64,000 nucleotides of DNA. It comes from Phycisphaerae bacterium (lineage in GTDB: Bacteria > Planctomycetota > Phycisphaerae > UBA1845 > Fen-1342). Below are positions 8,183 to 24,547 of this stretch, one piece after another. A model generated the notes under the pieces. The model was given only the letters and a program-made list of their open reading frames with translations. It did not search any database and was not told the DNA's origin. Made by a program: the position numbers and the translations under genes. Where the stretch lies: assembly GCA_050115495.1 (NCBI GenBank), contig JASFQK010000008.1:64001-128000 (forward strand), given 5' to 3'. The stretch's first letter is position 1. Each line of letters begins with the position of its first letter.

Positions 8183-8690
8183 GGCGGCGGTCTGACTCCT
8201 GGCCCCTCGGTTCGCTTGCTCTTCAATCGCGGCGGGTGGCAGTTCGCGTGAGCGGGCACTCGTGGAGCGAGACGGCGGCCTTCCTGGCGTCGCCCGCGGC
8301 CAAGACGGCGGTCGCCGCACTGCGGACGATGTCGCCGGTCTGGCACGAACTCTTTACAGGGACCGGATGACGAACGCGCGGCTGACGAACGAGTTAGCGG
8401 GCTCCTGACCGCTACAGGCGTGACGTTCGCCTGCGGTGCAGGCGCCGGGATTGTCATCGTGAGGGGCGCCTGCTAGTATCAGGCAGTGGGCAAGGCAAGT
8501 CGAGGCGTTGCGACGGTGCTTGGGCGTCGGCTGCACGCGCAGCGTTCAGGTTGTCCGGGTCCGTTGGGGACCGTCCAGGCAACGCCCGTCGTGGCAGCCG
8601 GATACGAGTTGCCACGATTGCGACAGCGGATGCTCGTCAGAAGCACGTCGATGTTGGTCTTCCAGTGGTCTCGTATGCAGGGGAAGAGAA

Positions 8691-9479
8691 ATGACCGATC
8701 GCGGCTGGCGGACCGTGTACGGCGTCATTCGTGACCCGCTCAGGAAACGGTTTTCAGTGCAGGAACTGCGCGCCGTGTTGGGCAAAGCCGGCTTCGATAT
8801 AGTGGCGCTGCCTCGCGACGATGATCGCGCGAAGATCTTCGCAAAGGTCGACGCAGCGTTTGAGAAGATGTCGGAGCGTGAGAAGGCCGCCGCGCTGTCG
8901 ATCCTCGCGGAGGAACTCACGAAAGGGGACGACGGGCTGCTCCAGGAGTCTCGAACTGCGTTGGAAAGGCATGGCTTCGACTACTTCGACGGCGTGTTCT
9001 CGTATGTGGAGCTATTCGACGAACGAGACCGCCCGTTCGTTCCCGAAAGCGCTATCCCGGATCTTTCCAAAGCACTGACCCGGCTTGCTGACCACGACTA
9101 CAGCGGTGCGATCGGCGCGGCATGTGGTGCTGTCGATTCGGTCACACAGAGAATCTACGCGGCTGCGGGAAGACCAGTTCCTGATGGTTTTCAAGGGAAG
9201 GTGTGCTCAGTGCTCAAGCCCCTTTGGAGCGGACTTGTTTCGCGACTCGTCGATGAAATCGGCATGAGTCAGAGCGATGCGGCCGATCTGGTGAAGTGCC
9301 TGCGAGGCAGCTGTACGTCGTCGTCGAACGCACTGCAGATCATGCGCAGGACCCTCGGAGACGTGCATGGCGATAAGCCTGCCACCGCCCAAACCGCCTA
9401 TTACGCAATCAAATCCGCTGCTGCGCTTTGCGGAATGATGAGCGAAGGTCTGCTTGGAGCACATCCAGTGCCAGCTTAA
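8691..9479 (+). CDS. Abi_C / HEPN-like abortive-infection family protein
   Basis: C-terminal DYSGAIGAACGAVDSV ... MRRTLGDVHG (Rx5H); lower GC than flanks. Confidence 0.6.
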   Translation: MTDRGWRTVYGVIRDPLRKRFSVQELRAVLGKAGFDIVALPRDDDRAKIFAKVDAAFEKMSEREKAAALSILAEELTKGDDGLLQESRTALERHGFDYFDGVFSYVELFDERDRPFVPESAIPDLSKALTRLADHDYSGAIGAACGAVDSVTQRIYAAAGRPVPDGFQGKVCSVLKPLWSGLVSRLVDEIGMSQSDAADLVKCLRGSCTSSSNALQIMRRTLGDVHGDKPATAQTAYYAIKSAAALCGMMSEGLLGAHPVPA

Positions 9480-9752: not shown

Positions 9753-10868
9753 ATGACGGGGCGGCGGTATGTGCCATTGGTCCTACTCGTGGCATATGGT
9801 TGTTCTGCGAGTCCAGTGGGGGATCGCTCCGCATCCGGGCGTAGTGAAACGGTGAGATCGGCGCGCGGCAATCCGGAAGCAGAAAGGCGCGGCACGGAGC
9901 AGTTGCACGGAGAGCGCAGCTATGCAGCCGACCTTGACGGGCTGCAGGCGTGGGCCGACGCGCTCCAGGAGACAAGAGCGTACTTCGACCTGCGATACGG
10001 ACCGTGTCCGGTCTGCGAAGGCACGGGAAGAGTGAGGAATACGGACCCGGCGCGGCCGCTACTGGTTCCATGCGACTTCTGCGGCGGACGCGGTCGCGTC
10101 CTCGATCTCACGGAGTTGGATGATTTCCTCATGCACGTGCTGTTCGGCTTACCGTTCGCCGTGTGGGACGTAACGACCGAGTATTTGGAGCGCATGCAAC
10201 AGCGAATGGAAAGCGACGCCGATTTCGCCATTGCTGTACGGCGCGCCTCGGCGGTGCTGGGCGTTTCGCTGAACCCATGGGGCCTCGAAGCGGATACACT
10301 CGCCTTGCACGGCGAAGTCGCACAGATCGTAGCGATCAATCTGGGCGAGCTGAATCGTCATGTGATGGAAGTGCATAGGCGAGTAGCGAGCGCAACGCTG
10401 TCTCTCTATGTGGTGGCAGGAGGAGTCAGGCAGATCCTGAGCGATGGGGATCATCTTGTATTTGTCTTGGACGGAATGGCGACCAATCGTATTGATAGGT
10501 CGGCAGAAAGCGTGTCGTTCTTGGTGTGCGCGCCGAGCGCCGATGCTCTACCGGGGCTCAGAGATATACAGCGTTTTCGGCCGCTGATAATCGTCGGCAG
10601 CATTGGCGCCCCAGATTGGCTGGCTGAGGATTGCCCGCTCATCATCGACAATATGCGGTGTGGAGACTGGGAGACGGATGCCTACGCCGAGTTGACGAGG
10701 GCGGTCAGACGGTCCCGCGACCGGTCGGCAGACCGGTTGGTCGGGCTGATTCGTGAATCGGACGTGCCCGTGATTACGGTACGTTCTTCCCAACCACACG
10801 GCGTTGAACGCTTGCTCCAGTTGCTCGGCCAGCGCAGAGCAGACATGTCGCGTTCTGCGGAGCCGTGA
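9753..10868 (+). CDS. Hypothetical lipoprotein with DnaJ-type CxxCxGxG zinc finger
   Basis: GAGGAGG RBS; lipobox VAYGC; CPVCEGTG ... CDFCGGRG. Confidence 0.65.
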   Translation: MTGRRYVPLVLLVAYGCSASPVGDRSASGRSETVRSARGNPEAERRGTEQLHGERSYAADLDGLQAWADALQETRAYFDLRYGPCPVCEGTGRVRNTDPARPLLVPCDFCGGRGRVLDLTELDDFLMHVLFGLPFAVWDVTTEYLERMQQRMESDADFAIAVRRASAVLGVSLNPWGLEADTLALHGEVAQIVAINLGELNRHVMEVHRRVASATLSLYVVAGGVRQILSDGDHLVFVLDGMATNRIDRSAESVSFLVCAPSADALPGLRDIQRFRPLIIVGSIGAPDWLAEDCPLIIDNMRCGDWETDAYAELTRAVRRSRDRSADRLVGLIRESDVPVITVRSSQPHGVERLLQLLGQRRADMSRSAEP

Positions 10869-10973
10869 AAGGGTCACCGTTCCATTCGCAATCTCCTCTG
10901 CTGTGCTTGTGCGGTCTATTGCTCGGCGGGAGCACGTCCGGCGGTCCACCGTGAGGGAGGGGAGGCAGCCAAC

Positions 10974-11037
10974 GTAGGGCGGGTCTCACCCTCCGAGATG
11001 AACTGCAGAACGAATCGGTGGGTGGAACCCACCCTAC
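10974..11037. repeat. Inverted pair of GTAG-type REP palindromes (REPIN-like)
   Basis: GTAGGGCGGGTCTCACCC ... GGTGGGTGGAACCCACCCTAC. Confidence 0.75.
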
Positions 11038-11135
11038 ACACTCGGCGGCTTGGCGTGCTTGGCGCGTAGCAACAAACCGGCCCGGGCGGCCGTCGCCGCG
11101 CGGGCCGGGTGGTGTTACTGGTCGTGTGCCGGGGC

Positions 11136-12572
11136 TTAGGAGGCCGCGGCGGCTTTGGCTTTGGGGGTTTGCGTGAGCAGCCATTCGTGCATTGAGCCGG
11201 CGGCTTTCTTGCCGTCGCCCATGGCCAGAATGACCGTCGCCGCGCCGCGGACAATGTCGCCGCCGGCGAAGACGCCGGGCATGCTCGTGGCGAGCTTGTC
11301 GTCGGCCTCGATATAGCCCCACTTGTTCGTCTTCAGTTCGGGGGTGGCGGCGGTCAGCAGGGGGTTGGCCTTGGTGCCGATCGCCGGGATGGCGACGTCG
11401 CAGGGGACGATGAACTCGGAGCCCTTGATGGGGACCGGCCGCCGGCGGCCGGAGTCGTCGGGTTCGCCGAGCTCCATCTGGATGCACTCGACGCCGGTGA
11501 CCCAACCGGATTCGTCGCCGACGTAGCGGATCGGGTTCGTCAGCAACTTGAAGATGATGCCCTCTTCCTCGGCGTGCTTCACCTCTTCGGCACGGGCGGG
11601 CATTTCGGTGCGGCTGCGGCGGTAGACGAGCGTGGCCGTCTCGGCGCCGAGGCGCTTGGCGGTGCGGACGGAGTCCATGGCCACGTTGCCGCCGCCGATG
11701 ACGACGGCGTTCTTCGGGCGGATGATGGGCGTGTCGAAGTCGGGGAACTCGTAGGCCCGCATGAGGTTCGAGCGGGTGAGGTACTCGTTCGCCGAGTAGA
11801 CGCCCTTGAGGTTCTCGCCGGGGATGTTCATGAAGACGGGCAGGCCGGCGCCGTTGGCGATGAAGAGGGCGTCGAAGCCCTCCTCGCCCAGCAGCTCCTG
11901 GACGGTGAACGTGCGGCCGACGACGACGTTGCAGATGATCTTGACGCCCATCTCGCGCAGGCGGCCGACCTCGGCGTCGATGATCTTGTTGGGCAGGCGG
12001 AACTCGGGGATGCCGTAGGTGAGCACGCCGCCGGGCTGATGCAGGGCCTCGAAGATGGTGACGTCGTGGCCCTTCTTGGCGAGCTCGCCGGCACAGGTCA
12101 GCCCCGCCGGTCCGGAGCCGACGACGGCGACGCGATAGCCGGTGGAGGCGGCGAGGATGGTTTTGATGTCGAGGTTTTCGCGGGCCCAGTCGGCAACGAA
12201 GCGCTCGAGGTGGCCGACGGCGACCGGCGTGCCCTTCTTGCCGCGGATGCAGACCTGCTCGCACTGCTCCTCCTGGGGGCAGACGCGGCCGGTGATGCCG
12301 GGCAGGGCGTTGGCGTCGAGCAGGATGCGGGCGGCACCTTCGAGGTTGCCCTCGGCGATCTGCTCGAGGAAGCCGGGGATGTCGATACCGACGGGGCAGC
12401 CGTAGACGCACTTGCCGTCCTTGCAACGGAGGCAGCGGTCCGCCTCGAGCTTGGCGATGCTCTGCTGGAAGCCGAGGTTGACTTCCTGGAAATCGCGGTT
12501 GCGCACCGTGGCTTCACGTTCGGGCATGTGCTGCCGCTCGATGGCCATCCGCTCTTTGGGGGTCATTGCCAT
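11136..12572 (-). CDS. NfnB/SudA-type flavo-Fe-S subunit (GltD-like, often annotated as homotetrameric NADPH glutamate synthase)
   Basis: RCLRCK-CVYGCP, GRVCPQEEQCE, GSGPAGL, YGIPEFRLP, IGGGNVAMD, GVFAGGD; paired with an NfnA-like gene; no gltB nearby. Confidence 0.92.
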   Translation of the reverse strand: MAMTPKERMAIERQHMPEREATVRNRDFQEVNLGFQQSIAKLEADRCLRCKDGKCVYGCPVGIDIPGFLEQIAEGNLEGAARILLDANALPGITGRVCPQEEQCEQVCIRGKKGTPVAVGHLERFVADWARENLDIKTILAASTGYRVAVVGSGPAGLTCAGELAKKGHDVTIFEALHQPGGVLTYGIPEFRLPNKIIDAEVGRLREMGVKIICNVVVGRTFTVQELLGEEGFDALFIANGAGLPVFMNIPGENLKGVYSANEYLTRSNLMRAYEFPDFDTPIIRPKNAVVIGGGNVAMDSVRTAKRLGAETATLVYRRSRTEMPARAEEVKHAEEEGIIFKLLTNPIRYVGDESGWVTGVECIQMELGEPDDSGRRRPVPIKGSEFIVPCDVAIPAIGTKANPLLTAATPELKTNKWGYIEADDKLATSMPGVFAGGDIVRGAATVILAMGDGKKAAGSMHEWLLTQTPKAKAAAAS

Positions 12573-12611
12573 GATGGAGTCACCTGTTAGCGTTGACGGT
12601 CGTGGCCGTGG

Positions 12612-13466
12612 TCAGCGCCCCGCCGCGGCGCCGAGCCTGCACTTGTGCTCGGCGCGGTCGAGGGCTTCCTTCTCCTGCCTGCGGTAGGCGGTGAGACGGT
12701 CGGCCAACTCGGCGAAATTGACGAGGTGGCCGTCGAACTCGGGCCCGTCGACGCAGGCGTACTTGGTTTCGTCGCCGATCGTGACGCGACAGCCGCCGCA
12801 CATGCCGGTGCCGTCGATCATGATGGGGTTGAGCGAGACGATGGTTTTGATGCCGGACTCGCGGGTCAGGTCGCAGATGGCCCGCATCATGGGCACGGGG
12901 CCGGCACAGTAGATGATCTCGATGGGCCGCGATTTGTCGGCCATCATGTCGCGGAGCTTGTCGGCGACGGTGCCCTTGTAGCCGTAGCTGCCGTCGTCGG
13001 TGGTGGCGTAGACGACGTCGGAGACTTCGCGGAGCTCGTCTTCGAGGACGACCAGCTCCTTGGTGCGGCCGCCGGTGATGGAGGAGACGTAGCAGCCGAT
13101 CTCGCGGAGGGCGCGGGCCAGGGGGTAGATGACCGCGGTGCCGACGCCGCCGCCGACGAGGACGGCATGCCCGACCTTCTCGATCTCGGTGGGCTGGCCG
13201 AGGGGGCCCATGACGTCATTGATGAAATCGCCGGTGTTCTTGAGGAAGAGCTCGCGGGTGGTCTTGCCGATGGCCTTGACGATGAGCTCGATGGTGCCGG
13301 CTTGGGGGTCGGCGTGAGCCATGGTCAGGGGGATGCGCTCGCCGGTCTCGCCGAGGCGGATGATGACGAACTGGCCGGGCTTGCGGTGCTTGGCCACCAG
13401 GGGGGCATCGATACGGTACCATTTGACGTCAGAGGCCAGTTGCCTGGCGTCGAGGATCTTGAACAT
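12612..13466 (-). CDS. NfnA/SudB-type FAD/NAD-binding 2Fe-2S subunit
   Basis: KPGQFVII, ERIPLT, GPLG, GGGVG, AGPVPMM, MIDGTGMCGGCRV, ACVDGPEFDGH. Confidence 0.93.
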   Translation of the reverse strand: MFKILDARQLASDVKWYRIDAPLVAKHRKPGQFVIIRLGETGERIPLTMAHADPQAGTIELIVKAIGKTTRELFLKNTGDFINDVMGPLGQPTEIEKVGHAVLVGGGVGTAVIYPLARALREIGCYVSSITGGRTKELVVLEDELREVSDVVYATTDDGSYGYKGTVADKLRDMMADKSRPIEIIYCAGPVPMMRAICDLTRESGIKTIVSLNPIMIDGTGMCGGCRVTIGDETKYACVDGPEFDGHLVNFAELADRLTAYRRQEKEALDRAEHKCRLGAAAGR

Positions 13467-13641
13467 AGGCTGCTCCCGGGCGGGCTGGGCACGGATCTCG
13501 TCAGGGCGCAGTCCAAGAGCCCGCCGACGGCGGAGGGTGAGCAAGAACCGTGCCACCGGGAATGGGGGTTTAGCGCCGGCGACCCCGGGATATCCGGCCT
13601 CGGCTGGGGGATTTTCCCCATCGGCGGTGGCCAGAATGCCG

Positions 13642-14769
13642 TTACGCGCGGAACGTGACCGAGACCGCTTGCAGGGGCTGCGGTCCGTCGGCGGCGAGTC
13701 GGTCGGCGAGGTCGCGGGCCTCCTCCGCCGACGTGCACAGCGTGAAGAACGCCGACCCGGAGCCGGTCATGCGGACGGGGCCGGGGCAGAGTCGGCGGAT
13801 GGCAGTTATCCAGACCCGCAGGTCGGGGTAGGTGGCCAGGGCGGGCTCTTCGAGGTCGTTGAAGAGGATCGCCGACAGGGCGGGCGGGTCGGCGAGGCGG
13901 GCGAGGACGTTGGCGAGGGGCGGGCGGGGCTCGGTCGGCGGGTCGCGGTCCCAGGCGGCATAGACCGCCGGCGTGCGACAGAATCCGCCACCGAGCAGCA
14001 GTATGGCGTGGGTGGTGAGGGGGTCGGCGGCTGGGGCGGCAGGTCGAAGAAGGGGACTGGCGCCGAGCCGGGGGGCCTCGCTGTGCTCAGTTGCCGCCGC
14101 GGGCGAGGTGCCTGTCCCCTCTTCCGACCGTTTGTCGGGGACGTCACGATCGCCGGCGCGCTGGCTTGGTTCGGCGGCGGGCACGCTTGCCGGCGGGCGC
14201 TCAAGCTGCTCGCCGGCAGCGGCAGGTCGGCTTCGGTCGGCGCCGGACTCACTGTCGGTCCGGTCGACGCCCGCGTCGCCTCGTGCCTGACCGGCGAAGA
14301 CGTCCTCGATCTGGTCGCCGCGGCCGCGGAGGATACAGAGCGGGCTGTGGAAGAAGAGTGGCACGTCCGAGCCGAGGGCGGCGCCGATGCGAGCGAGGTC
14401 GGCGACGCCGAGCGACCACAGGTCGTTGAGCAGGGCGAGCGTCGTGGCGGCGTTCGAGCTCCCGCCGCCGAGCCCCGCGCCGGCGGGGATCCGCTTGGCG
14501 AGTTCCAGGTGCACGCCGAAGTCGCTGCCCGTGGCCCGGGCCAGCTCATCGGCGGCCCGAAGGGCCAGGTTCCCCCGGTCGGTCGGCAGGCTCGGGTCGT
14601 CGCAGGAGAGCGTCCGGCGGCCGTCCGGAGCCGGGTGAGCGGTGATCGTGTCGTGCAGCGAGACCCGGGCGACGAGCGACTCGATCTCGTGAAACCCATC
14701 CGGCCGCAAACCAACGACGCGGAGCGTCAGATTGATCTTCGCCGGCGATGAGCGGGTGAGTGGGGGCAT
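13642..14769 (-). CDS. ispE: 4-diphosphocytidyl-2-C-methyl-D-erythritol kinase with a ~85-aa internal insertion
   Basis: SPAKINLTL, DGFHEIES, KRIPAGAGLGGGSSNAA, LGSDVPLF, FNDLE, MTGSGSAFF. Confidence 0.93.
   Translation of the reverse strand: MPPLTRSSPAKINLTLRVVGLRPDGFHEIESLVARVSLHDTITAHPAPDGRRTLSCDDPSLPTDRGNLALRAADELARATGSDFGVHLELAKRIPAGAGLGGGSSNAATTLALLNDLWSLGVADLARIGAALGSDVPLFFHSPLCILRGRGDQIEDVFAGQARGDAGVDRTDSESGADRSRPAAAGEQLERPPASVPAAEPSQRAGDRDVPDKRSEEGTGTSPAAATEHSEAPRLGASPLLRPAAPAADPLTTHAILLLGGGFCRTPAVYAAWDRDPPTEPRPPLANVLARLADPPALSAILFNDLEEPALATYPDLRVWITAIRRLCPGPVRMTGSGSAFFTLCTSAEEARDLADRLAADGPQPLQAVSVTFRA
14042..14129. repeat. Palindromic element inside the ispE coding sequence
   Basis: GGTCGAAGAAGGGGACTGGCGCC ... 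GGTGCCTGTCCCCTCTTCCGACC, imperfect inverted repeats. Confidence 0.7.
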
Positions 14770-14775
14770 GGGGGG

Positions 14776-14804
14776 ATTATACGGGAAGTCACCGGCGCAG
14801 GCAG
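14776..14804 (-). promoter_or_regulatory. Putative sigma70 promoter of ispE (possibly leaderless mRNA)
   Basis: CTGCCT-N17-TATAAT, with -10 ending 6 nt before ATG 14769 and no RBS. Confidence 0.5.
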
Positions 14805-14929
14805 TTGGGATGCGGACGCGCGTGGACTCTCTTGCCGCGGCGTTGGCTGGGAGACTTGAGAAGTGCGGGGGGCCACCAGTCCTGAGCGATTCCGACGAGT
14901 GTCGGGCGACGTTCTCCGACGAAGTCACT

Positions 14930-15973
14930 TCACGCGGTCATGCGCGTGTCCCAGGCTTGCGCCAAGCGTCGCGGCTCGTTTCGCTTCTTCGAGGTAATCC
15001 ACCACTTGCCTCGGCGGGCAGACAATCCTCGGCTGGCCAGCGCGCGCATCACGTGTCGGTCACCGGCTTCAAGTAGTCGCTTGATGTGACGGGCGGGACC
15101 GAAATCGGCCTGCCGGGTGTAGTACATCCAGCCCGCCACCTGCGCTCGTTTGCGTGCAAGCCCTTCGAGGGAATCCGCGCTGACCACCTTCGCCCCACGG
15201 AGGTATGCTTCGGCCAGCGCAAGGGCCTTCGCGGTCTGCTCTGCCACGATCTTCACGCCGCGCCGGTTGTTCACGCGCAGGTTGTGCACTCGTTGCTCGC
15301 GGTGCTGGGCCGCGAATCCGTTCATCCGTAGCTTTCGGGCGTTGATCGACAGACCGTGACCTTCGATTTGCCTCCGCATCGCGTCGCCTGGCCATTCAGC
15401 TAGGCTCGGCGATTGGACCGAGATCACCATGTCGTCATAGGTGCGCGAGTACCGCGAACCGTTCCGCCCGCACGCGGCCGACAGCGCACGATCGGCGTCG
15501 TAAAGGAAGAGGTTCAGCGCATCAGAGCTTACCGGTGAACCTTGTGCCATACGACCACGCACGGTGCACAAGAATGACAGGAGCAGCGCCACGTCCGATC
15601 CAAAACCCATGCCCAGCAGTCGTTTCTTCAATTCAAGCTGGGAGATCGACGGGTAGCAGTCTCGTACGTCTCGTGTGACCACGTAGCGTCGGCCGAGGTG
15701 CCGCCGAGCACTCGTGAAGCATGATCGCGACTTTGCGCCGCCGTGGGCACATGGGTGGGGTGGAACGGCCCGAACCAGGAATCGGTGTAGCTTTCGGAGT
15801 ATCGACTTGGTCTGAGGCTTGGGTGCGTCGATCTCCCTGATCTTCCCGCACACGCGCTTCTGACGCGTCGGTAGAAACGCGGCGTCCATGTTCTTGGCTA
15901 GCGTCCACAGTCTCGCCTCGGACATGCCGACAGCTTTGGCTATGTCAGCGCCCCTCATCGCTTCTGGTTTCAT
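14930..15973 (-). CDS. Retron-like reverse transcriptase with divergent motifs
   Basis: GKIREIDAP, AHGG, SCFTSARRH (region X), TRDVRDCYPSIS, MAQGSPVSS, YSRTYDDMVIS, GLSINARK, QRVHNLRVN (region Y), GWMYY thumb; GGAG RBS. Confidence 0.9.
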   Translation of the reverse strand: MKPEAMRGADIAKAVGMSEARLWTLAKNMDAAFLPTRQKRVCGKIREIDAPKPQTKSILRKLHRFLVRAVPPHPCAHGGAKSRSCFTSARRHLGRRYVVTRDVRDCYPSISQLELKKRLLGMGFGSDVALLLSFLCTVRGRMAQGSPVSSDALNLFLYDADRALSAACGRNGSRYSRTYDDMVISVQSPSLAEWPGDAMRRQIEGHGLSINARKLRMNGFAAQHREQRVHNLRVNNRRGVKIVAEQTAKALALAEAYLRGAKVVSADSLEGLARKRAQVAGWMYYTRQADFGPARHIKRLLEAGDRHVMRALASRGLSARRGKWWITSKKRNEPRRLAQAWDTRMTA

Positions 15974-16295
15974 CCGTCTCCGTCTCCGACGACAACGTTG
16001 ATCTCAGCTCGTCCTCGACAGACAGCATCTTCTGAATCATTGCGACAAGTGCCTGGCTCACTTGGTCTTCGCTCTGCAAACGTCCGTTAGCAGGTTGCGC
16101 GAGAATGATGAGCACCTCCGGCGGAATCCGCAGGGCATTCGCGAGCCGTCGCAACACATCCAGTGACGGCTGCCGCTCGCCGTTTTCGACGAGGCTTAGA
16201 AACGGAATGCTGACGCCTGCATTGTCGGCGAGCGTAGACAGCCGCATCCCTTTTGCAGCCCGCACTATACGAATGGCCTTGCCAAGCTCTAGCAT
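15945..16295 (-). CDS. XRE/Cro-family helix-turn-helix protein, overlapping the RT start
   Basis: LGKAIRIVRAAKGMRLSTLADNAGVSIPFLSLVENGERQPSLDVLRRLANAL; 29-nt overlap with the RT gene. Confidence 0.92.
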   Translation of the reverse strand: MLELGKAIRIVRAAKGMRLSTLADNAGVSIPFLSLVENGERQPSLDVLRRLANALRIPPEVLIILAQPANGRLQSEDQVSQALVAMIQKMLSVEDELRSTLSSETETDETRSDEGR

Positions 16296-16351
16296 TGGCA
16301 GTCCCTTGAGTTCGATCTGTGAGCACACGCGTTACCCATCGCGCGCTGATA

Positions 16352-16648
16352 TCAGGATGCGAGGAGTGTATCGACCTCTGCCTGGAGTTGATCGAACAGC
16401 AGTTCGAGCTTCTCCGCGAGGTCCATAGCCTCCGCCGCGGCCAGGGTCCGACCGTACCGACCGAGTTCTTCGATCAGCGTGGCCAGAGCGACCGCGTCAT
16501 CCATCGACCCCGAAGTCCCCGAGGCTCTCCGCCGCGCCATTTCTGACGAGAGGAGCTTGCGAATCCGGATGGCGCCATCTTCAACGACGCGAAAGAACTC
16601 GCAGGGCCTGGAGGAACTCCCCGACCACACCAACTCATGATGCTGCAT
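16352..16648 (-). CDS. 98-aa small helical protein, candidate effector of the RT operon
   Basis: GGAGG 6 nt before ATG 16648; amphipathic C-terminal helices (DDAVALATLIEELGRY...EKLELLFDQLQAEVDTLL); lies between the structured leader and the HTH gene. Confidence 0.7.
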   Translation of the reverse strand: MQHHELVWSGSSSRPCEFFRVVEDGAIRIRKLLSSEMARRRASGTSGSMDDAVALATLIEELGRYGRTLAAAEAMDLAEKLELLFDQLQAEVDTLLAS

Positions 16649-16649
16649 A

Positions 16650-16900
16650 CGCAGCCTCCATTGGGTTTGGCGGGAAGAGCATCGCTTCCCGTCGGGGTCC
16701 GACCAGCCGGGGACAGTCCCCGGACTCACGATCGGCAGGCCTGGCAGGGGCCAGGCTCCCGCGGCTAGCGCCGCTCCCGGACGAGCCGGGCAACCTCCCC
16801 GCGACACGAGATCCCGGGGCAGGTGAGGGGTTTGGAGGCTTGGTGCGATCGGTTATTCAGTTTTCAACTGGGCGCGGACAAGCCGGTGGCCCACTAAACT
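16650..16900 (-). ncRNA. Putative RT-associated structured ncRNA/leader (retron msr-msd-like position)
   Basis: Seven adjacent hairpins (16671-16823) enclosed by the inverted repeat AGCCTCCA 16653-16660 / TGGAGGCT 16833-16840, directly downstream of a strong promoter. Confidence 0.65.
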
Positions 16901-16906
16901 GCGGGT

Positions 16907-16935
16907 ATTATACCACACAAGTAAAATGGAGTCAA
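16907..16935 (-). promoter_or_regulatory. sigma70 promoter of the RT operon
   Basis: TTGACT-N17-TATAAT with extended -10 TG and an AT-rich upstream region. Confidence 0.85.
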
Positions 16936-17221
16936 CTTTGGTTAAATAATTTTCTCTTTTTCGGACGATCACCTCGCTGCACCGATTGCGCGGTGTGGTG
17001 GTCCTGCAGCGTACACGGCTGCGGGTCAACTCCCTCGCTTTCCGGCGTCAGGACGCCGTAGACGCATTCGTGCACGCGGCGGAGGAGAACTCGGGCCAAG
17101 GCGATCGCGGGTATGGCGCGGCGGGTGGGCTGCGGAGGGGGCACGGCCGGGCGGCAGCGTGTTGGCTGCGGCGCTGTTTTGCTTCTCAGCAGGCGAAAGG
17201 GGTACGTTGCGCCGCGGGGCG

Positions 17222-17788
17222 CTACAGCTCGTCGTCGGGTTGCAGGGGGGAGTGGTGCCAGGGCCAGTAGCTCATGACCGCTGCTTCGTCTTCGTCGAGG
17301 CTGGCGTGGTAGTGATGTGCGTGCGGGCAGGGGAAGCGGAATTCCTGTTGCGTGAAGCCGCGCAGGCGGAGGGTTGCCTCGAACTCGTCCAGCGGGCCGT
17401 AGGCGTAGATCACGTTGTGCTGGTCGTAGACGAGCAGGCCGGGGCCGCTGAAGGACTCCACCCAGACGTGGTGCCGACCGTCCTGCTCGAAGAACGTGCG
17501 GTATGTTTCGAGGAAGCCGCGGACCGCCGCCGGCGAGATGTCGGCGGCCGCGTATCGTCCTGGTGGCCGTTCCTCCCGGCGGGGAGTGAGCAGGACGTAC
17601 AGGACGCCGAACGGGCCAGGGAGCAGGTCGAGCAGGGCCAGGATCAGGTTGATGTGGTCGCGCGACGGACCGATAACGAGGCGCATGGGCCCCGTGGTCT
17701 GCTCGCGATACCAGAGGTCGCCGTATTCGTGCGGCTGCGGCGGCTGGCGCCAGCGGGGGCTGGACAGTTTCGGCAATCTGATCTTCAC
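17222..17788 (-). CDS. Hypothetical protein
   Basis: Good codon usage; FFEQDGRHHVW, LVYDQHNVIYAYG, PHAHHYH. Confidence 0.7.
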   Translation of the reverse strand: MKIRLPKLSSPRWRQPPQPHEYGDLWYREQTTGPMRLVIGPSRDHINLILALLDLLPGPFGVLYVLLTPRREERPPGRYAAADISPAAVRGFLETYRTFFEQDGRHHVWVESFSGPGLLVYDQHNVIYAYGPLDEFEATLRLRGFTQQEFRFPCPHAHHYHASLDEDEAAVMSYWPWHHSPLQPDDEL

Positions 17789-17809
17789 GGTTCCACCGGT
17801 ATAGCAGCC

Positions 17810-17915
17810 GCAGGGCGAGCCTCGCCCGGCGATCGTTCGATTGTCAGTTCGCGGTCACGCCGCGTCGATGGCGTTTCTGGGCGTTCGATTGTGCGGCGGG
17901 TGAGACCCGCCCTAC
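17810..17915. repeat. REPIN-like element (inverted REP pair)
   Basis: GCAGGGCGAGCCTCGCCCGGC ... GGCGGGTGAGACCCGCCCTAC; 17837-17915 differs from 18812-18890 at 8 of 79 positions. Confidence 0.75.
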
Positions 17916-17960
17916 GTGCGGTGTGATCGGCGGGGTGGGAGTGGCGACGTGGCGTGGTGT

Positions 17961-18722
17961 TCATGGCCGGGGCTCGGTGCTGCTGAGACGCAGGCGGAGG
18001 AGGAGGTCGTTGAGGGCGGGGGCGGCGGTGGGGTCGGGTGGTAGGGGGCTGGTGGCGGAGGCGGCTTCGAGGGTGGCGGTCAGGCGGCGGTATTCGTGCT
18101 CGTGGAAGGCGAGATCGGTGTCGGCCAGGGGGTCGTGCTCGCCGCCGGCGGTCTTGCGGGCGATGAGGTCGTCGACGTGCGGGAGGCGGTGGGCCTCGTT
18201 CAGACGGGGGAGGTTCGCCTCGATCTCGCCGGTACGCATTAGGTGCAGGCCGGCCAGCAGCACGCGGTACGTGTAGAGCAGCGGCTTGAGGCGGCGGTGC
18301 TGCTCGACGAGCCGCCACTGCGTGCGGGCGAAGCCGAGGTAATGCAGCGCGTGCTGCTTCGTGACGCAGCCGCGGGCGATGGCCTTCAACTCGTCGTGGA
18401 CGGGCGTCGTGTGCAACACGAGCGGCGAGTAGAGCTGCTCGAGCACGTACCCGTTCGGGCGGAGCAGCAGGCGGAAGAACTTGCGGACGTCGTGCGTGAC
18501 GAGGTCGAGATCGACGCCGGCGGGGCCCGTGGTGCACTCGATCGTCTCGGGCGGCGGCGTTAGACCGATAACTTCGCGGAGCGGCAGCACGTGGACGCCG
18601 CGAAGGTCGTAGTCGGAGTCCGCCGACGGGAAGCCGTAAAGGTGGGCGCCGCTGATGGTGACGAAGAGGAGCGGGTAGGGCTGGGCGGCGATCACGCTTT
18701 GAAGTTGTGGCGGGGCCGGCAT
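17961..18722 (-). CDS. Pol-beta superfamily nucleotidyltransferase (YcgL/RlaP-like, Nuc-transf)
   Basis: ISGAHLYGFPSADSDYDLRGVH, HDVRKFFRLLLRPNGYVLEQLYSP, KPLLYTYRVLL. Confidence 0.88.
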   Translation of the reverse strand: MPAPPQLQSVIAAQPYPLLFVTISGAHLYGFPSADSDYDLRGVHVLPLREVIGLTPPPETIECTTGPAGVDLDLVTHDVRKFFRLLLRPNGYVLEQLYSPLVLHTTPVHDELKAIARGCVTKQHALHYLGFARTQWRLVEQHRRLKPLLYTYRVLLAGLHLMRTGEIEANLPRLNEAHRLPHVDDLIARKTAGGEHDPLADTDLAFHEHEYRRLTATLEAASATSPLPPDPTAAPALNDLLLRLRLSSTEPRP

Positions 18723-18759
18723 GTGGATGAGTCCTTGGGGGCGTTTCGCTCGATCACGC

Positions 18760-18890
18760 TGGCGTTTCTCGGCGTTCGGTCGTGCGGCGGGTGGAACCCG
18801 GCCTACGCGGCTCGATTGTCAGTTCGCGCTCACATCCCGTTCATGGCGTTTCTCGGCGTTCGATTGTGCGGCGGGTGAAACCCGCCCTAC
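18760..18890. repeat. Tandem REP-containing units
   Basis: TGGCGTTTCTCGGCGTTCG..GTGCGGCGGGTG(G/A)AACCCG(G/C)CCTAC repeated at ~84-bp spacing. Confidence 0.75.
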
Positions 18891-18973
18891 CCGGTTGTGG
18901 TTGCCGGCTGTGTGCGGCGCCTTCGGCTCGGAGGCAGTCCGCTTCTTCAACCGCGTGATCGGTCGCGCTTGCG

Positions 18974-19750
18974 TTAGTCAAGGTCGCTGGCGATATTCGA
19001 GACCAATCGGCACTTCTCGCAGCGGAAGTCATAGCGGTCGAGCCACTGCTCGTCGAGCTTCCAGGCTCCGCCGCAGTCCGGACAGCGACGCTGAAGCTCG
19101 GCCCGGCGGCTGCGCCCGTAGTAACGCATCAGGTCGTAATACGTCGGCACGCCGGTGTTGGCTTCGATTAGTCGGCAGACGTCGCGGCCCTCCTCCGCCA
19201 GTTCGCTGTGCGGTTCCGACAACTGTCGATAGGCCAACCGTTCCCCGGCGCCGCTGGCGATCCAGATTGAGTCGAGGTCGCGGTAGTGGTAGGCCCAGAA
19301 TCGCAGGTCCTCGAAGTTGCCGTACTCGCTCGTCGGCGGGATGCGGTACAGCGGCACGACGCCGCCGCATCCGCCGCAACGCAGCGGCGTCTCGCACGAG
19401 AGGAAGTCCGTGGAGAGGATCAGCGCCGGCGGCTTGCGGCAGGTGCAGACCGGGTCCGACTCGGGGTCAGGGCCGAGCACGCGTGTCGAACGCCATTCGA
19501 CGCCGGCTTTGCGCAGAGCGCGTATGGCATCGCGAACCCGCTTGCTGCGATGTTTGGGGTGCAGCGAGTCGGCGTCCGGCAACGACACGTACCAGCGCCA
19601 GCCGCCGCGGATCTCCACAACGGGGGCGTCCTGCTCGATCAACTGCCCGTTTCGCCGGAGTGAGAACAACAACTCGTCGATCGCCCAGCGCACCTCTTCC
19701 GGGTCCGCCTTTCGTTTCTGCCAGGTGAAGGTCAGTTCCGCCGTGTGCAT
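18974..19750 (-). CDS. Zn-ribbon protein (DUF2310-like)
   Basis: LRRNGQL, CTC, PLRCGGC, QLSEPHSELAEEG, PTYYDL, CPDCG, FRCEKCRLVS; GGAGG RBS. Confidence 0.85.
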   Translation of the reverse strand: MHTAELTFTWQKRKADPEEVRWAIDELLFSLRRNGQLIEQDAPVVEIRGGWRWYVSLPDADSLHPKHRSKRVRDAIRALRKAGVEWRSTRVLGPDPESDPVCTCRKPPALILSTDFLSCETPLRCGGCGGVVPLYRIPPTSEYGNFEDLRFWAYHYRDLDSIWIASGAGERLAYRQLSEPHSELAEEGRDVCRLIEANTGVPTYYDLMRYYGRSRRAELQRRCPDCGGAWKLDEQWLDRYDFRCEKCRLVSNIASDLD

Positions 19751-19809
19751 GCTGGGCCTCCCTGGGCGACCGCGGCCCTGTTTCCGCAGGGTCCGTCGAA
19801 TCGCCGGTG

Positions 19810-20781
19810 CTACATATTGTCGTTTCCGAACGTCCGCTGGAACAGGGCCGGGACGATTTCGCCGGCGGTGCCGCGCAACCACACGTCACCGCCACCGGGT
19901 TCGTCCGGATCGATCACGATCAGCTTGGCGCCGGCGGCGCGGGCCCTGGCGGGCAACATGGCCGCGGGCAGGACGACGCCGGACGTGCCGATGATCAGCA
20001 TCACGTCGCAGCGCCGGCTGTCGGACAGGGCTTGGCTCCAGTCCGGCTCGGTCAGCGGCTCGCCGAAAAGCACGGCGCTCGGACGCACCAACCCGCGCCA
20101 GGAGAGACCGGCCAGCGGGCGGATCGCCAGGGCCACACGCAGCAGCGCCATCCAGCTCAGCTCGGCGGCCTCCAGGCGGCGGACGATCCTGGCCAGACCG
20201 GCCCGGGTTAGCAGCCGCACGAAACGCTTGCGCAGCGTAACGACCCGCAGCAGCGAGCCGTGGATCTCGCGGACGGTGGTGCTCCCGGCTTCCTGATGCA
20301 GGCCGTCGACGTTCTGCGTGACCACGGTCACGTTGACGTGCTTCTCGGCGTGGGCGATGGCCTGGTGGGCGGCGTTGGGCTTCGCCTGCGCCAGCGGCCG
20401 CAGCAGCCGGGCCAGGAAGTGGGCGAGTCGCCGCGGACGCCACAGGGCCGTTCGCACCAACCCGGTCCACGTCGCGAACTCGTCGGGCGAGAACTCTGTC
20501 CAGAGTCCGCCGGCAGTGCGGAAGGTGTCGATGCCGCATTCGGCGGAGACGCCCGCGCCGGTGAAGACGACCAGACGCTCGGCGGAGCGCAGGTAGTCGG
20601 CGGCGAGATCCAGATTGTCGCCGGCTGGCGTTATGTCTCGCGTACACTCGTTGGCTGGCGTGATATGGCACGCTCTCCGGTCGCGGTCACGTGATGCAAC
20701 TCCGCCGGGCTTTGATGAGGAAGGCGTTGACGCGGGTGTAGTCGGGGCGGTCCGGTAATGTTGTTCGTTCGTACGCCGCAT
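19810..20781 (-). CDS. Sir2/CobB-family NAD-dependent deacylase (true start uncertain)
   Basis: VFTGAGVSAECGIDTFR, PNAAH, TQNVDGLHQEAG, EIHGS, RPSAVLFGE, IGTSGVVLPAA; the Zn-finger cysteines are absent. Confidence 0.9.
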   Translation of the reverse strand: MRRTNEQHYRTAPTTPASTPSSSKPGGVASRDRDRRACHITPANECTRDITPAGDNLDLAADYLRSAERLVVFTGAGVSAECGIDTFRTAGGLWTEFSPDEFATWTGLVRTALWRPRRLAHFLARLLRPLAQAKPNAAHQAIAHAEKHVNVTVVTQNVDGLHQEAGSTTVREIHGSLLRVVTLRKRFVRLLTRAGLARIVRRLEAAELSWMALLRVALAIRPLAGLSWRGLVRPSAVLFGEPLTEPDWSQALSDSRRCDVMLIIGTSGVVLPAAMLPARARAAGAKLIVIDPDEPGGGDVWLRGTAGEIVPALFQRTFGNDNM

Positions 20782-21625
20782 CGAATCGACGATGTAGCTC
20801 CAGCCGCCAGGCGTCGACGTCGGGCCAGGGGACCTCGCCGCGGCGGATGGCCAGCAGGCGGTCGCGATGCTCGTCGACGGCCACGGGGACCGTCGCTTCG
20901 CGCAGGGCGACGATTCCCGCCAGCAGCAGCCGGATCAGGTGCATGGCGTGCTTCCATTTGATGTCGCGCTGGCTGTTGAGGCGGGCGGAGAGCTTGCGGA
21001 ACTGGCTGAGCACGTAGCCGCCGTAGGTCTGGTAGATGAGCTTCGAGAGGAACGCGGTGCGCAAGTCGAGCAGTTCGCGGGCCAGCGGCGTGGCATGCTC
21101 GACGAGCGGCGTGTAGAGGCACTCGAGGACGTTCGGGTTGGCCTTCAGGGCGAGCGTGAGGAACTTCTGCAATTCCCAGTAGCACTCCTGCGACTGGGCG
21201 TTTTCGAGCTGCTCCGGTACGCCGTAGAGCGACCAGTGCATCTCCGCCGGCGGGAGGTAGACGCCGCGGCGGTCGACGTCGGAGCCTTCGTGGTCGAGGC
21301 CATACGCCCGCGAGCCGACCACGCAGCGGTAGATGACGCAGTCGAGCAGGTCGTAGTCGTCGAGGACGTTGGCGGCGGACCAGATCTGTTCGCGCAATAA
21401 CTGCTTGAGGACGGCGAACTGGTTGCGGCGCAGGGTGGCCTCGCTGCCGTCGGCGAAGCGGACGCGGTAGGAGTGCGTGTGGTCCGCCGGCGACTTGACG
21501 ATGAGGCCGACCGCGCCGGGCGGATGCTGCACGTCGCTGCCGGCGGCCTGGACGCCGATGCGGCTGACGACCTGCGTCCCGGGCGGGACGATGGCGTTCG
21601 GGTCGTAAGCGATCCTGCGGGGCAA
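20687..21625 (-). CDS. Second YcgL/RlaP-like nucleotidyltransferase with an N-terminal SH3-like extension
   Basis: VVGSRAYGLDHEGSDVDRRGVY, WELQKFLTLALKANPNVLECL, WKHAMHLIRLL, LPDRPDY. Confidence 0.9.
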   Translation of the reverse strand: MPRRIAYDPNAIVPPGTQVVSRIGVQAAGSDVQHPPGAVGLIVKSPADHTHSYRVRFADGSEATLRRNQFAVLKQLLREQIWSAANVLDDYDLLDCVIYRCVVGSRAYGLDHEGSDVDRRGVYLPPAEMHWSLYGVPEQLENAQSQECYWELQKFLTLALKANPNVLECLYTPLVEHATPLARELLDLRTAFLSKLIYQTYGGYVLSQFRKLSARLNSQRDIKWKHAMHLIRLLLAGIVALREATVPVAVDEHRDRLLAIRRGEVPWPDVDAWRLELHRRFDAAYERTTLPDRPDYTRVNAFLIKARRSCIT

Positions 21626-21711
21626 GGGGGTACTCCTGTCTGTGCGGGTGGTGCGCTATTGTCGTCCGCGGCGGGGCGGAGGCAACGGGGGCTCCCTCGA
21701 CGACGCTGGTG

Positions 21712-22377
21712 TCATCGCCTCAACCTCGCCCCCCAGTCCTGGAGCTCGCGTTGCATGTTTGTTCGGGCGGCCGCTTCGTACTTCTCCCGGAATCGGGCCG
21801 TGTGGAAGATGTGGTCCTTGGCGAGCATGCTGCGCAGGAACGCCTGGCGGTGTGGTCCGAGTTCCTGGTCGGGGAGGCCGACCTCGCGGCGGATCGCGTC
21901 GGCGTAGCGGTCGTAGACCGCCGGCTCGCGACCCAGGATGCTGAGGTCGATGTCGCAGATGATTCGCTCGCGGTCGTCGTGTAGCGGACGGCGGTGGTCC
22001 GTGGCCAGAATCAGATGCACGACGCCGGTTACGAACTCGGGAGCGGCCCCGAGCGACGTCAGCGCGGTGCGAGCCAGCTCGGCGCTGCGCTCTTCGCTGT
22101 CCTTGGCGCCGATCGCGTACACCGCATCGTGGAAGAGAATGGCCGCCTCGATGTCCAGTGGCTCTTCGAGGGCTGTGTCGCGGCGCAGGATGTCGAGGCA
22201 ATCCTCAACGTGCGCCAGATTGTGGTAGGCGCGCCAAGGCTCGGTGTGCCGGCGGTACAGCTCTTCGCAGACCGCCTCGGTGTCGCCGGTCAGGTCGAGC
22301 CCTTCGCAGATGCGAGCCCAGTGCCGGCGCAGTCGCTCTCGCTGATTCGCAGGTTGGTCCGAGCTGTCTGCGGGCAT
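21712..22377 (-). CDS. HD-superfamily metal-dependent phosphohydrolase (COG4339-like)
   Basis: EPWRAYHNLAHV, AILFHDAVY, SEERSAELA, LILATDH, DIDLSILG, IRRE. Confidence 0.88.
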   Translation of the reverse strand: MPADSSDQPANQRERLRRHWARICEGLDLTGDTEAVCEELYRRHTEPWRAYHNLAHVEDCLDILRRDTALEEPLDIEAAILFHDAVYAIGAKDSEERSAELARTALTSLGAAPEFVTGVVHLILATDHRRPLHDDRERIICDIDLSILGREPAVYDRYADAIRREVGLPDQELGPHRQAFLRSMLAKDHIFHTARFREKYEAAARTNMQRELQDWGARLRR

Positions 22378-22497
22378 CGCTTGGACTCCGTCGCATCGCA
22401 ATGAGGTGCACGGCCGTTCGCGCCAGATCCGGCCGCTACGTCAACTGCCGGCCCGCCTGAGCCACGTCAAGCCGGCGACCGAGCATACCGCTCCGCG

Positions 22498-23496
22498 CTA
22501 GTCGCCGGCGTCATCGTCGGCGGGCTGTGTCGTGGGCGGTGCGATCGTCACGGTGAAGCTCTTCACCATGGCCTGCACGTCCGGCCAGATCGCATCCTCC
22601 AATTCCGGGGCCATCGCAGTGAAGATCGCGAAGCACATGCCGTGCTTCAGGAAGACCCACTGCCGCAGGATCACGTGCGTCTCCGGATGTTGCCCTTCCC
22701 AGAACAGCGCGTCCGCGCCGTCCACCTGGACCGTCGTCATGGCGTCGACCGTGCACTGCGGATCGAGCATGTGCGCCCAGGAGAGGGCCCATTCGCGGCG
22801 AACACGCTCGAAGAGCGCCGCCTCATCCTCGCCCGGCTCGGCCGAATACTCGCCGAGCATATAGACGTCCATGCCGACCGGAGCCTGCGGTGGAACGAAC
22901 TTGATCCAGTGGCCATAGTTCTCCACCTCCCACCCGTCGGCCACCTCCAGAAAGAACGGAAGCGGCAGCGACGGCTCGACGAACATGAAGCCGAGACGCG
23001 CGTCCTTGTAGTACCAATGCGTGTAGGTCTGACGAGCCACGGCGTTGAAGTACTCCGTCCAGGTGGGCTGGTAGAACTCGGGGAAGTTCGTCCACATCTC
23101 GGTTTCGGCCACTTCTTCGGTCTCGCACGATACCGGTACATCGTGCACGGCGAGCCAGAAGCTCACCATCGCGTCGAACGACCCCATCATCATGGGGGAC
23201 CGGCGGCGGGAACTCAGGAAGCGGGCCCGCCGGTCGGGATCGTCGAGCCACGCGCTGGTGGGCGTCGCGTCTTCCGTGGACGAGGTGGGAGCGGACGTGG
23301 TGGTGGGGCTGGCGCTGGGGGCATTGTCGGTTGCAGGCGGCGCTGGTGTCTCGGCAGCGGCCGAAGCCGTCGCTTGTTGCTGGCTGGATGCGCCGGGCGC
23401 AGGCTTCGGTGGGGAATTGGAGTCGCATGCGGTGCACGTGATCAGCGCGAGCAGGGCAGCCGCCAGGACGACGTGGGCGATACGCGCGGTGCTCAT
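22498..23496 (-). CDS. Hypothetical lipoprotein
   Basis: GAGGAGG RBS, lipobox TCTAC, Pro/Thr/Ala linker. Confidence 0.7.
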   Translation of the reverse strand: MSTARIAHVVLAAALLALITCTACDSNSPPKPAPGASSQQQATASAAAETPAPPATDNAPSASPTTTSAPTSSTEDATPTSAWLDDPDRRARFLSSRRRSPMMMGSFDAMVSFWLAVHDVPVSCETEEVAETEMWTNFPEFYQPTWTEYFNAVARQTYTHWYYKDARLGFMFVEPSLPLPFFLEVADGWEVENYGHWIKFVPPQAPVGMDVYMLGEYSAEPGEDEAALFERVRREWALSWAHMLDPQCTVDAMTTVQVDGADALFWEGQHPETHVILRQWVFLKHGMCFAIFTAMAPELEDAIWPDVQAMVKSFTVTIAPPTTQPADDDAGD

Positions 23497-23695
23497 TGAT
23501 GCCTCCTCAGTCGGATTGTTGTGGCCTTTCGACAATAGAAGCCGCCGACAAACGGGCTTCTTCCTCGCCGGGGGCCGCCCCCCCGAGTGTGCACATAGTA
23601 TACACGGACCGGTCTGTCGTTCGGTTGGCCCGCGTGCCAGATTCCGCCTGCGTCCGCGTGGGTGACCTGTGCGGGCTTACCGATCGACGAGCTCG

Positions 23696-24547
23696 CTACT
23701 CTTCGACATTCGCTCCCCAGCCGTCGTACTCGCCGCCGTGATCACGGGCGAGGTGGAACAGGCGGATCGTTACCTCAGTGATCTTGTCGGGCTCGACCGA
23801 GTCCACGCGGGTGACGTGCAGGGTCCAGCGTGACTCTTCATCGGACGGCGGCGTTCGGTCGACGACGCGAAAGCCGTCCGCGACGAGGATCTCAGCGACG
23901 CGGTCCAGGCCGTCGCGGCTCTCAAAGTAGAGCCAGTGGTCGACCTCCCGCGGCTTGGTGAGATCGTCACCGTGCGCGCGCAGTCGTGCCAGGACTCTCT
24001 CGTCCTTGATGCGCTGCCAATCATCGTTCGTCGGGTGCAGTGTTCTGCGGTAGACCTCCCAGTCGGGATCTTCACGCAGGTCCAGGCGTGGCCGACGCGA
24101 CGCCAGGTTGGACGTCAACTTACGCAGCAATTCCTGCGTGTGCTCCGGCTGCTCCGTATATATGTAGAGCACGTAGCTCTGCCCATTCACCTGCCGTCCG
24201 GCGTAGCGCTCTGTGTGCGCGTCGAGGCCCTTGTCCAGCGAGTCTTCCAACGCGTAAACGTCCTCGAAATCGTCTGCGCTCGGGAACCCGTTCTCTCGCC
24301 AGGCGCGGGCATCCAGCCGCAGGGTGATTAAGTGCCGGAGATGACCGCCGGCAGAAGGCATTGCTCCCGCGTCGACGTGGATTACCGTGGCTGCATCATC
24401 GGACGCCCGCATGAATGTGACCCAGTCAGCGCTTGGCATTCCTGCCCGTGCCGGCGGCGCTGGCCGCCGCCGGTTCAACTGCCACACGACTAACGCTGCG
24501 GCGACGACGACCGCGAGCGCCAGCATCGCCGGGATTGCCGTCTTCAC
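23696..24547 (-). CDS. DUF695 / RraB-like domain protein
   Basis: N-terminal TM; DPDWEVY; HGDDLTKPREVDHWLYF ... GGEYDGWG. Confidence 0.8.
   Translation of the reverse strand: MKTAIPAMLALAVVVAAALVVWQLNRRRPAPPARAGMPSADWVTFMRASDDAATVIHVDAGAMPSAGGHLRHLITLRLDARAWRENGFPSADDFEDVYALEDSLDKGLDAHTERYAGRQVNGQSYVLYIYTEQPEHTQELLRKLTSNLASRRPRLDLREDPDWEVYRRTLHPTNDDWQRIKDERVLARLRAHGDDLTKPREVDHWLYFESRDGLDRVAEILVADGFRVVDRTPPSDEESRWTLHVTRVDSVEPDKITEVTIRLFHLARDHGGEYDGWGANVEE

Follow-up and report, generated by a model that had tools for sequence, protein, structure and literature searches.

Gene Organization and Genomic Setting

The window, by which we mean the whole 64,000-nt stretch of DNA that was analysed, carries on its minus strand, in the direction of transcription, a promoter, a structured leader, and the genes for a protein designated SP, a Cro/C1 HTH protein, and a retron reverse transcriptase (RT), the module being followed downstream by a gene with GHMP kinase domains. 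The coding part of the module comprises the following genes.

16352-16648, minus strand: SP, 98 aa, three-helix bundle, putative toxin; start placed from homologues and the GGAGG site
15945-16295, minus strand: Cro/C1 HTH protein, 116 aa; PADLOC HTH_VI 4e-19, Pfam HTH_3
14930-15973, minus strand: retron RT, 347 aa, with D102, TYDD (residues 178-181), and VHN (residues 229-231)

The best PADLOC models for the locus are RT_VI and HTH_VI, and its layout is the ncRNA-SP-HTH-RT operon of the type VI retrons, which were characterized only in 2025-2026 from two Gammaproteobacteria that disagree on the mechanism (bioRxiv 10.1101/2025.10.22.683967, 10.64898/2026.04.27.721009). The lineage of the RT is delimited by a gap in score, 111 of 114 protein matches reaching at least 172 bits and the remainder at most 63, and the gap recurs among full-length proteins in a full profile search. 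From the loci of the lineage, 10 duplicates were removed, together with four whose upstream DNA was too short and those that broke off before the HTH gene. The 30 non-redundant loci that were left, mostly from Planctomycetota, all keep the ncRNA-SP-HTH-RT layout with an HTH gene of the Cro/C1 kind; among the loci that could be named, 11 of 13 belong to the Planctomycetota. Two lineage members (L040, L042) sit on short contigs of Rhodobacteraceae and Paceibacterota bins, reflecting either transfer or misbinning.

The module is sporadic in its occurrence, being found in 0 of 71 genomes of the host family and in 6 of 278 other genomes of the order. Two scans of viral contigs revealed no relative, and the phage and plasmid collections yielded only distant retron RTs, with 22-30% identity among the matches listed. 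Upstream of the module, a minus-strand cluster at 17961-21625 encodes two RlaP-family nucleotidyltransferases, a Sir2 protein, and a DUF2310 protein, and a 323-aa ORF on the plus strand (8508-9479) with a weak Abi_C match (E 0.048) is possibly another defence gene. Other planctomycete SP-HTH-RT retrons (L032, L085-L087) have different RTs and other small proteins.

Expression across the leader and SP is indicated by a single metatranscriptome contig, from one study available as contigs, which spans 16337-16886 with zero differences and bridges the two, while ending short of the distal repeat arm IR2 described below and giving neither RNA ends, strand, nor level. This contig is compatible with the published hybrid RNA (ncRNA plus SP) of type VI retrons. 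Separate RNA contigs cover pieces of the HTH and RT genes at a depth of about 3, compared with 35 over the leader and SP, depths that cannot be used to rank the genes, just as a lack of coverage is no proof of anything.

The Reverse Transcriptase and Its Lineage

The best PDB match of the RT is Ec86 (113 bits), with DRT2 and DRT9 far more distant at 42 and 35 bits, and Foldseek ranks 1-11 are all retrons. In the initial annotation, the multi-branch leader had been likened to the ncRNAs of DRT systems, and a DRT-type system, in which such an RNA templates rolling-circle or homopolymer DNA, would indeed account for many short hairpins without a long msd stem, DRT2 and DRT9 likewise combining an RT with a multi-hairpin ncRNA upstream. 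The analogy is, however, not supported by either the protein or the operon: profile and fold both identify the RT as that of a retron, outside the DRT2/DRT9-like class, for the 98 RTs examined 25 families are listed and none is a DRT model, and the SP-HTH-RT layout with an inverted repeat across SP is a feature of type VI. To our knowledge, DRT2 and DRT9 systems have no SP-HTH module, and a DRT-type mechanism is considered very improbable.

In the RT alignment, D102 and D180 are invariant and D181 is nearly so, which gives a retron-class RT with intact catalytic aspartates. The YxDD and region Y (VTG) signatures are nevertheless missing, in that the Y is kept in none of the 98 RTs (F in two), the forms noted including TYDD (27) and VADD (25), and VTG is replaced by VH[NSG] or IHS with an invariant H in place of T. 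These substitutions could be taken to mean that the RT is a non-polymerising RNA-binding scaffold and the leader a mere riboregulator of an SP-HTH toxin-antitoxin pair, a reading against which stand the conserved aspartates, the covariation of the repeat IR1/IR2 (see below), and the fact that other RT_VI-best proteins, as well as a type V retron locus with RLLDD, have non-Y motifs. Since the type V locus also lacks the Y, loss of the motif excludes neither a retron nor activity, and the scaffold reading appears improbable. The enzyme may be unusual in priming or fidelity, given its multi-hairpin template and the presence of xxDD and VHN motifs.

The assignment to type VI in the strict sense is less straightforward. 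The RT_VI score is 129.5 bits, only 14 above type III-A, and the type VI RT of an E. coli prophage scores 351. In a maximum-likelihood tree, whose reference comprised nine annotated type VI loci, one type V locus, and profile-labelled proteins with zero type IV loci, the lineage forms one branch (support 99) outside the group (support 94) to which the known RTs of types VI and V belong. AU tests do not reject joining the lineage to the type VI/V RTs (p 0.29 and 0.18), so that its placement relative to clade 3 is provisional. With this placement and the failure of the two motif tests, membership in type VI in the strict sense is tentative.

Fold of the Leader RNA

The initial annotation had described this region as a leader of seven hairpins, packed almost end to end and closed by an 8-bp long-range stem, without a single long msd hairpin, and had proposed it to be the template or scaffold RNA of the RT. 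The elements of the RNA as they are now read are listed below.

16833-16840, minus strand: anti-Shine-Dalgarno strand of the 8-bp long-range stem, pairing with the SP ribosome site
16739-16823, minus strand: four short hairpins (16794-16823, 16776-16790, 16761-16774, 16739-16756), putative msd or template arm by their position 5' of IR1
16725-16734, minus strand: IR1, the 5' arm of the repeat that spans the SP gene, identified by the anchored pairing test and covariation
16707-16723, minus strand: hairpin directly after IR1, conserved in position; in 10 aligned leaders, both sides have changed in 5 of 7 pairs
16691-16703, minus strand: 5-bp hairpin of the initial annotation, disfavoured (pair probability 0.04)
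16671-16691, minus strand: conserved hairpin whose base reads ACGG...CCG, placed 43 nt ahead of the SP start; 23 of 30 loci have at least 6 bp, and 6 of 7 pairs change on both sides
16653-16660, minus strand: SP ribosome-binding site, GGAGG at 16659-16655, predicted from sequence and MFE to be sequestered
16325-16346, minus strand: hairpin just 3' of the SP stop codon, visible here and in homologous spacers
16313-16323, minus strand: IR2, 3' arm in the SP-HTH spacer, whose bulged A16318 and outermost G16313 are candidate priming residues

All of the inverted repeats are present in the sequence as described, and the absence of a long msd hairpin is correct, which is to be expected since a type VI ncRNA is fused to a toxin mRNA and is for that reason unlike a classical msr-msd. 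The seven-hairpin fold itself holds in part. Five stems (16671-16691, 16707-16723, 16739-16756, 16761-16774, and 16776-16790) have pair probabilities of 0.76-1.0 and the one at 16794-16823 is in the MFE structure in interrupted form; the hairpin at 16691-16703, in contrast, is displaced, its bases pairing in the MFE with 16730-16735. A local alternative partner for IR1 is found at 16699-16704. The long-range stem is real, joining 16833-16840 to 16653-16660, and covers the GGAGG of the SP ribosome site. What had been overlooked is that the RNA runs on through the SP gene to the partner repeat at 16313-16323.

Because the sequence has 68% GC, the hairpins might simply be a product of chance, and the folding energy of the single sequence gives some room for this, with a z of only -2.31 on the minus strand (equalled by 4 of 200 shuffles) and -1.64 on the plus strand; 2 of 60 GC-matched windows drawn from the same 64 kb also reach -2.3. 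The number of hairpins speaks against chance, the 251-nt minus strand containing seven perfect ones of at least 5 bp (six from the initial annotation and one at 16858-16870) and none of 2000 dinucleotide shuffles doing so. Homologous leaders fold beyond their shuffles as well, with a median z of -2.9 and 26 of 30 below -2, and the SP coding RNA is structured too (median z -2.8, 19 of 30 below -2, control windows -0.1).

Compensatory changes point the same way. Across the five named helices in 10 aligned leaders, 16 of 30 pairs have changed on both sides, which none of 500 shuffles reach and slid controls approach with 6-13, counts that are inflated by relatedness and refer to a structure derived from the window's own sequence. 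Covariation is best for the two 3' hairpins and weakest for the RBS stem (75% paired). From a plain MAFFT alignment, RNAalifold retrieved the two 3' hairpins and three pairs of a third, the last of the template arm, but neither the RBS stem nor the other template-arm hairpins. An Rfam search of window positions 10000-24000 gave no meaningful match. The leader hairpins are real structured RNA: a chance origin is refuted by conservation and covariation, and we give it a next to negligible probability. Position, conservation in the 30 loci, and covariation likewise support the proposal that this is the template or scaffold RNA of the RT. Two to six hairpins are predicted in the template arm of all 30 loci, and the hairpin at 16671-16691 is a candidate protein-recognition stem.

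Ribosome-Site Stem and Long-Range Repeat

The covariation sought between homologous leaders extends to the long-range repeat. In an anchored test, IR1 and IR2 from the same locus score 24.1, foreign combinations score 19.7, and the own pairing beats all 20000 permutations; this test was chosen after the alignment had been seen and replaced unconstrained duplex tests, which were too noisy. The own partner ranks first in 14 of 30 loci, and the outer pairs 2 and 3 of the helix occur as three and five standard pair types, switching among G-C, A-U, and C-G. The looser duplex test is weak (median z -1.0), and the repeat scores poorly in six Pirellulales-like loci. Within IR2, the bulged A and the terminal G are each found in 29 of 30 loci, which makes A16318 and G16313 candidates, on sequence grounds, for the priming residue.

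The leader thus combines a structured ncRNA with an a1/a2-like inverted repeat, as in retrons, though the repeat appears in the MFE structure of only 2 of 30 loci and is lacking in the other 28, forcing it at a median cost of 6.9 kcal/mol. Forcing IR1/IR2 opens the RBS stem, and the two helices are mutually exclusive in a nested fold.

Evidence for the RBS stem in the homologues is mixed. In 16 of 30 loci the best helix ends at most 11 nt from the SP start, and in the other 14 it ends 16-36 nt before it; its duplex test is weak (median z -0.9, own partner among the top three in 10 of 30), and in 17 of 30 loci it lies at a fixed distance, 28-36 nt, from the boxA-like motif described below. A conserved 7-nt direct repeat of the kind proposed for Vpa2 was not found in this lineage (mean excess 0.26 nt), and a repeated GGCGA is present in 4 of 8 comparison loci. 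A TCTTTGA motif considered as anti-Shine-Dalgarno element for the HTH gene was rejected, own and foreign pairs giving -6.50 and -6.47 kcal/mol.

Promoter, Candidate Operator, and boxA-like Motif

Three further elements lie at or before the 5' end of the transcript.

16940-16955, strandless: palindrome with the consensus GGWWAA-N4-TTWWCC, lying 4 nt before the -35 box; putative HTH operator
16907-16935, minus strand: sigma70-type promoter TTGACT-17-TATAAT, 11/12, start predicted near 16900; -35 TTGAC conserved in homologues
16855-16872, minus strand: boxA-like motif, degenerate in this copy (8/12, 6.3 bits); lineage consensus GNTCTTTGAMAA

The transcription start near 16900 that had been predicted before agrees with the 11/12 sigma70 match at 16935-16907. 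The palindrome reaches at least 9/12 in 27 of 30 loci, lies 4 nt from the -35 box in 22, and has arms that agree at 5.6 of 9 positions as compared with 2.8 after shuffling. A matrix built without the window's own site finds that site as the best match in the 5.97-Mb genome (18.6 vs 13.6 bits). Of eight ordinary type VI loci, five (from Aeromonas, Serratia, Microvirga, Scytonema, and Azospirillum; L115-L119) have a different palindrome, GTTCGC-N5-GCGAAC, upstream of the leader, in four of them beside TTGAC. The recognition helix of the HTH protein differs along with the palindrome (KSYLSE-type vs PFLSL-type), and the single lineage member with a deviant recognition helix also has a deviant palindrome. 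Because it varies with the recognition helix, the palindrome is likely to be the operator to which the HTH protein binds. Neither type VI preprint uses the words operator or palindrome in its main text (bioRxiv 10.1101/2025.10.22.683967, 10.64898/2026.04.27.721009), and none of the papers listed by a further literature search mentioned a type VI retron; by these search terms, the palindromes would give the HTH protein a DNA target that neither main text mentions. The third-best genome match of the matrix (11.1 bits) is located at 16848-16869, inside the leader and overlapping the boxA-like site, and is a possible second operator.

The motif GNTCTTTGAMAA follows the transcription start at 10/12 or better in 26 of 30 loci, the consensus having been derived from the same loci, and equals the motif in three of four planctomycete 16S leaders, including that of the window's own genome. 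In B. subtilis, the rrn boxA bound by NusB has the consensus AUGAUCUUUGAAA after a small 5' hairpin (PMC13753749). The lineage consensus matches it in place and sequence, with the difference that GNTCTTTGAMAA is carried by a retron transcript, where it would be a putative NusB site, and that the copy in the window is degenerate. No boxA above shuffle level was seen in eight non-planctomycete type VI loci, and, read by position, a boxA-like motif (9-10/12) stands behind a hairpin in three of four other planctomycete HTH-retron loci (L032, L085, L087), so that on this reading the motif is not peculiar to the lineage. No literature linking boxA, antitermination, and retrons was found. If retron leaders carry a boxA, Nus antitermination would reach as far as a defence RNA.

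Two observations on the same genome (G000) concern its other boxA-like and rRNA sequences. A non-coding element of about 410 nt, present in at least eight copies that are 88-97% alike (C8:1724-2132, C7:62238-62641, C36, C30, C32, C25, C61, and C46; L123-L125), starts after a -10-like TATCTT, ends exactly at a perfect boxA-like GATCTTTGACAA, and has no Rfam match; it is possibly a multi-copy structured RNA or an antitermination cassette. Between the 16S gene (L076, contig C11) and the end of its contig lie 1250 bases without a 23S gene, as with unlinked rRNA genes.

The SP and HTH Proteins

An ORF of 90-103 aa occupies the SP position before the HTH gene in all 30 loci. SP itself has no PADLOC or Pfam match, and its 83 homologues are all without a Pfam domain. 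The structural model (pLDDT 85) consists of three helices, for which the fold search gave no PDB match at E 0.001 and no Atlas match, the profile search finding designed repeat proteins only; natural relatives by sequence were not found among solved structures. In a comparison with the known type VI clusters (cl2075, 2760, 3272, and 3897) by fold and length, the three-helix fold fits and the length does not. By analogy with the characterized systems, SP is inferred to be the toxin.

The modelled HTH-SP complex scores 0.81, the best control 0.01, with reference to a mark that was reached by 116 of 157 complexes of solved structure and by 2 of 215 mismatched pairs. The modelling used a custom-built alignment; at least 97% of contacts are shared between runs, with a partner pLDDT of at least 78. 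In this model, the HTH protein would act as the SP antitoxin, as in Sen3, and HTH residues 16-55, with the DNA-reading helix, would lie outside the listed interface.

Proposed Mechanism

Taken together, the region probably forms the 5', non-coding half of a hybrid RNA that belongs to a type VI-like anti-phage retron from a divergent and mainly planctomycete lineage, in which the RT template and the SP toxin gene share one transcript. In the model that we favour, the 8-bp stem is predicted to hide the SP ribosome site in the resting state, any SP that is made would be bound by the HTH protein, as modelled, and the HTH protein would presumably also sit on the palindrome at the promoter. The boxA would shield the long untranslated leader from Rho termination, although the motif is weak in the window's copy. 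In the active state, IR1 would pair with IR2 beyond the SP stop codon, as suggested by covariation, and the RT would prime at the IR1/IR2 helix. In the a1/a2 geometry of retrons the template lies 5' of a1, here IR1, and for that reason the RT would copy the four short hairpins, probably yielding msDNA of about 100-115 nt. Once copying reaches the anti-Shine-Dalgarno strand, the SP ribosome site would be freed, SP would accumulate, and the infected cell would stop growing, by analogy with Retron-Vpa2 and Retron-Sen3.

Control at the protein level, as in Sen3, may act instead or additionally. In that alternative, msDNA is constant, and SP is made constitutively and held by the HTH protein. The RBS stem would do no more than adjust expression, and it is the protein complex that would respond to the trigger. 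The way Sen3 itself works (bioRxiv 10.64898/2026.04.27.721009), the score of the HTH-SP model, and the fact that the RBS stem is not universal in the 30 loci favour this alternative, and the fixed distance of the RBS helix from boxA and its exclusion of the IR helix in a nested fold are in conflict with it; we regard it as a serious contender, somewhat short of an even chance. The two modes are not mutually exclusive.

A bolder version, which we consider unlikely, takes the lineage as a separate one that arrived at the type VI design on its own, apart from clade 3. Here priming would occur from the 2'-OH of the bulged A16318, which lies 3' of the inner helix, at the place taken by the branching G in canonical retrons; the xxDD and VH[NSG] motifs would serve to read this A rather than a G, copying would erase the anti-Shine-Dalgarno strand in cis and turn the toxin on, HTH-SP would autoregulate at the palindrome, and Nus factors would act at boxA.

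Relation to Known Type VI Retrons

The leader appears to work like the hybrid RNA of type VI retrons, and the system is a known one in a divergent planctomycete branch, marked by an RT without the Y of YxDD, VH[NSG] in place of VTG, a multi-hairpin template arm, and a nearly invariant bulged A. With Retron-Vpa2, in which msDNA frees SP translation, it shares the ncRNA-SP-HTH-RT operon, a probable hybrid RNA of leader and SP, an SP ribosome site in a stem, and an inverted repeat that joins the RNA 3' end to the leader (bioRxiv 10.1101/2025.10.22.683967). It differs from Vpa2 in having 3-5 short hairpins rather than one long template stem-loop, in not conserving the 7-nt direct repeat that lies between msd and riboregulator in the Vpa2 group, in the length of the hybrid RNA (about 550-600 nt vs 470), and in its 98-aa SP and TYDD instead of YADD in the RT (bioRxiv 10.1101/2025.10.22.683967).

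The features shared with Retron-Sen3 (cl2075 lineage) are an RBS in a basal stem with an exclusive IR1-IR2 helix across SP, structured SP coding RNA, a 5' stem-loop, and the HTH protein as SP antitoxin, which is modelled in the present case; the 166-nt SL3 of Sen3 is, in contrast, lacking here, the RT lineage is separate, pairing of a 5' motif with the HTH ribosome site was unsupported by our test, and operator and boxA go unmentioned in the main text on Sen3 (bioRxiv 10.64898/2026.04.27.721009). This would make the planctomycete lineage a third, distant type VI design with a concrete cis switch, in which the RBS stem is set against the priming helix. The type VI retrons of Mestre et al. 2020 (PMC7736814) likewise have a Cro/C1 HTH gene upstream of the RT and a small three-helix accessory protein, with an SP of 75-79 aa vs 90-103 aa here and an HTH protein of 91-110 aa vs 116 aa. 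On planctomycete type VI retron ncRNA, the literature search returned only the SPIRE survey (PMC13712802), in the accessible part of which type VI is assigned to Bacteroidota, Bacillota, and Pseudomonadota, and lineage members may sit unnamed in preprint supplements. In an E. coli P2-like prophage (L082 693-1085), an annotated 130-aa gene spans the type VI ncRNA, and its SP likely starts at 931.
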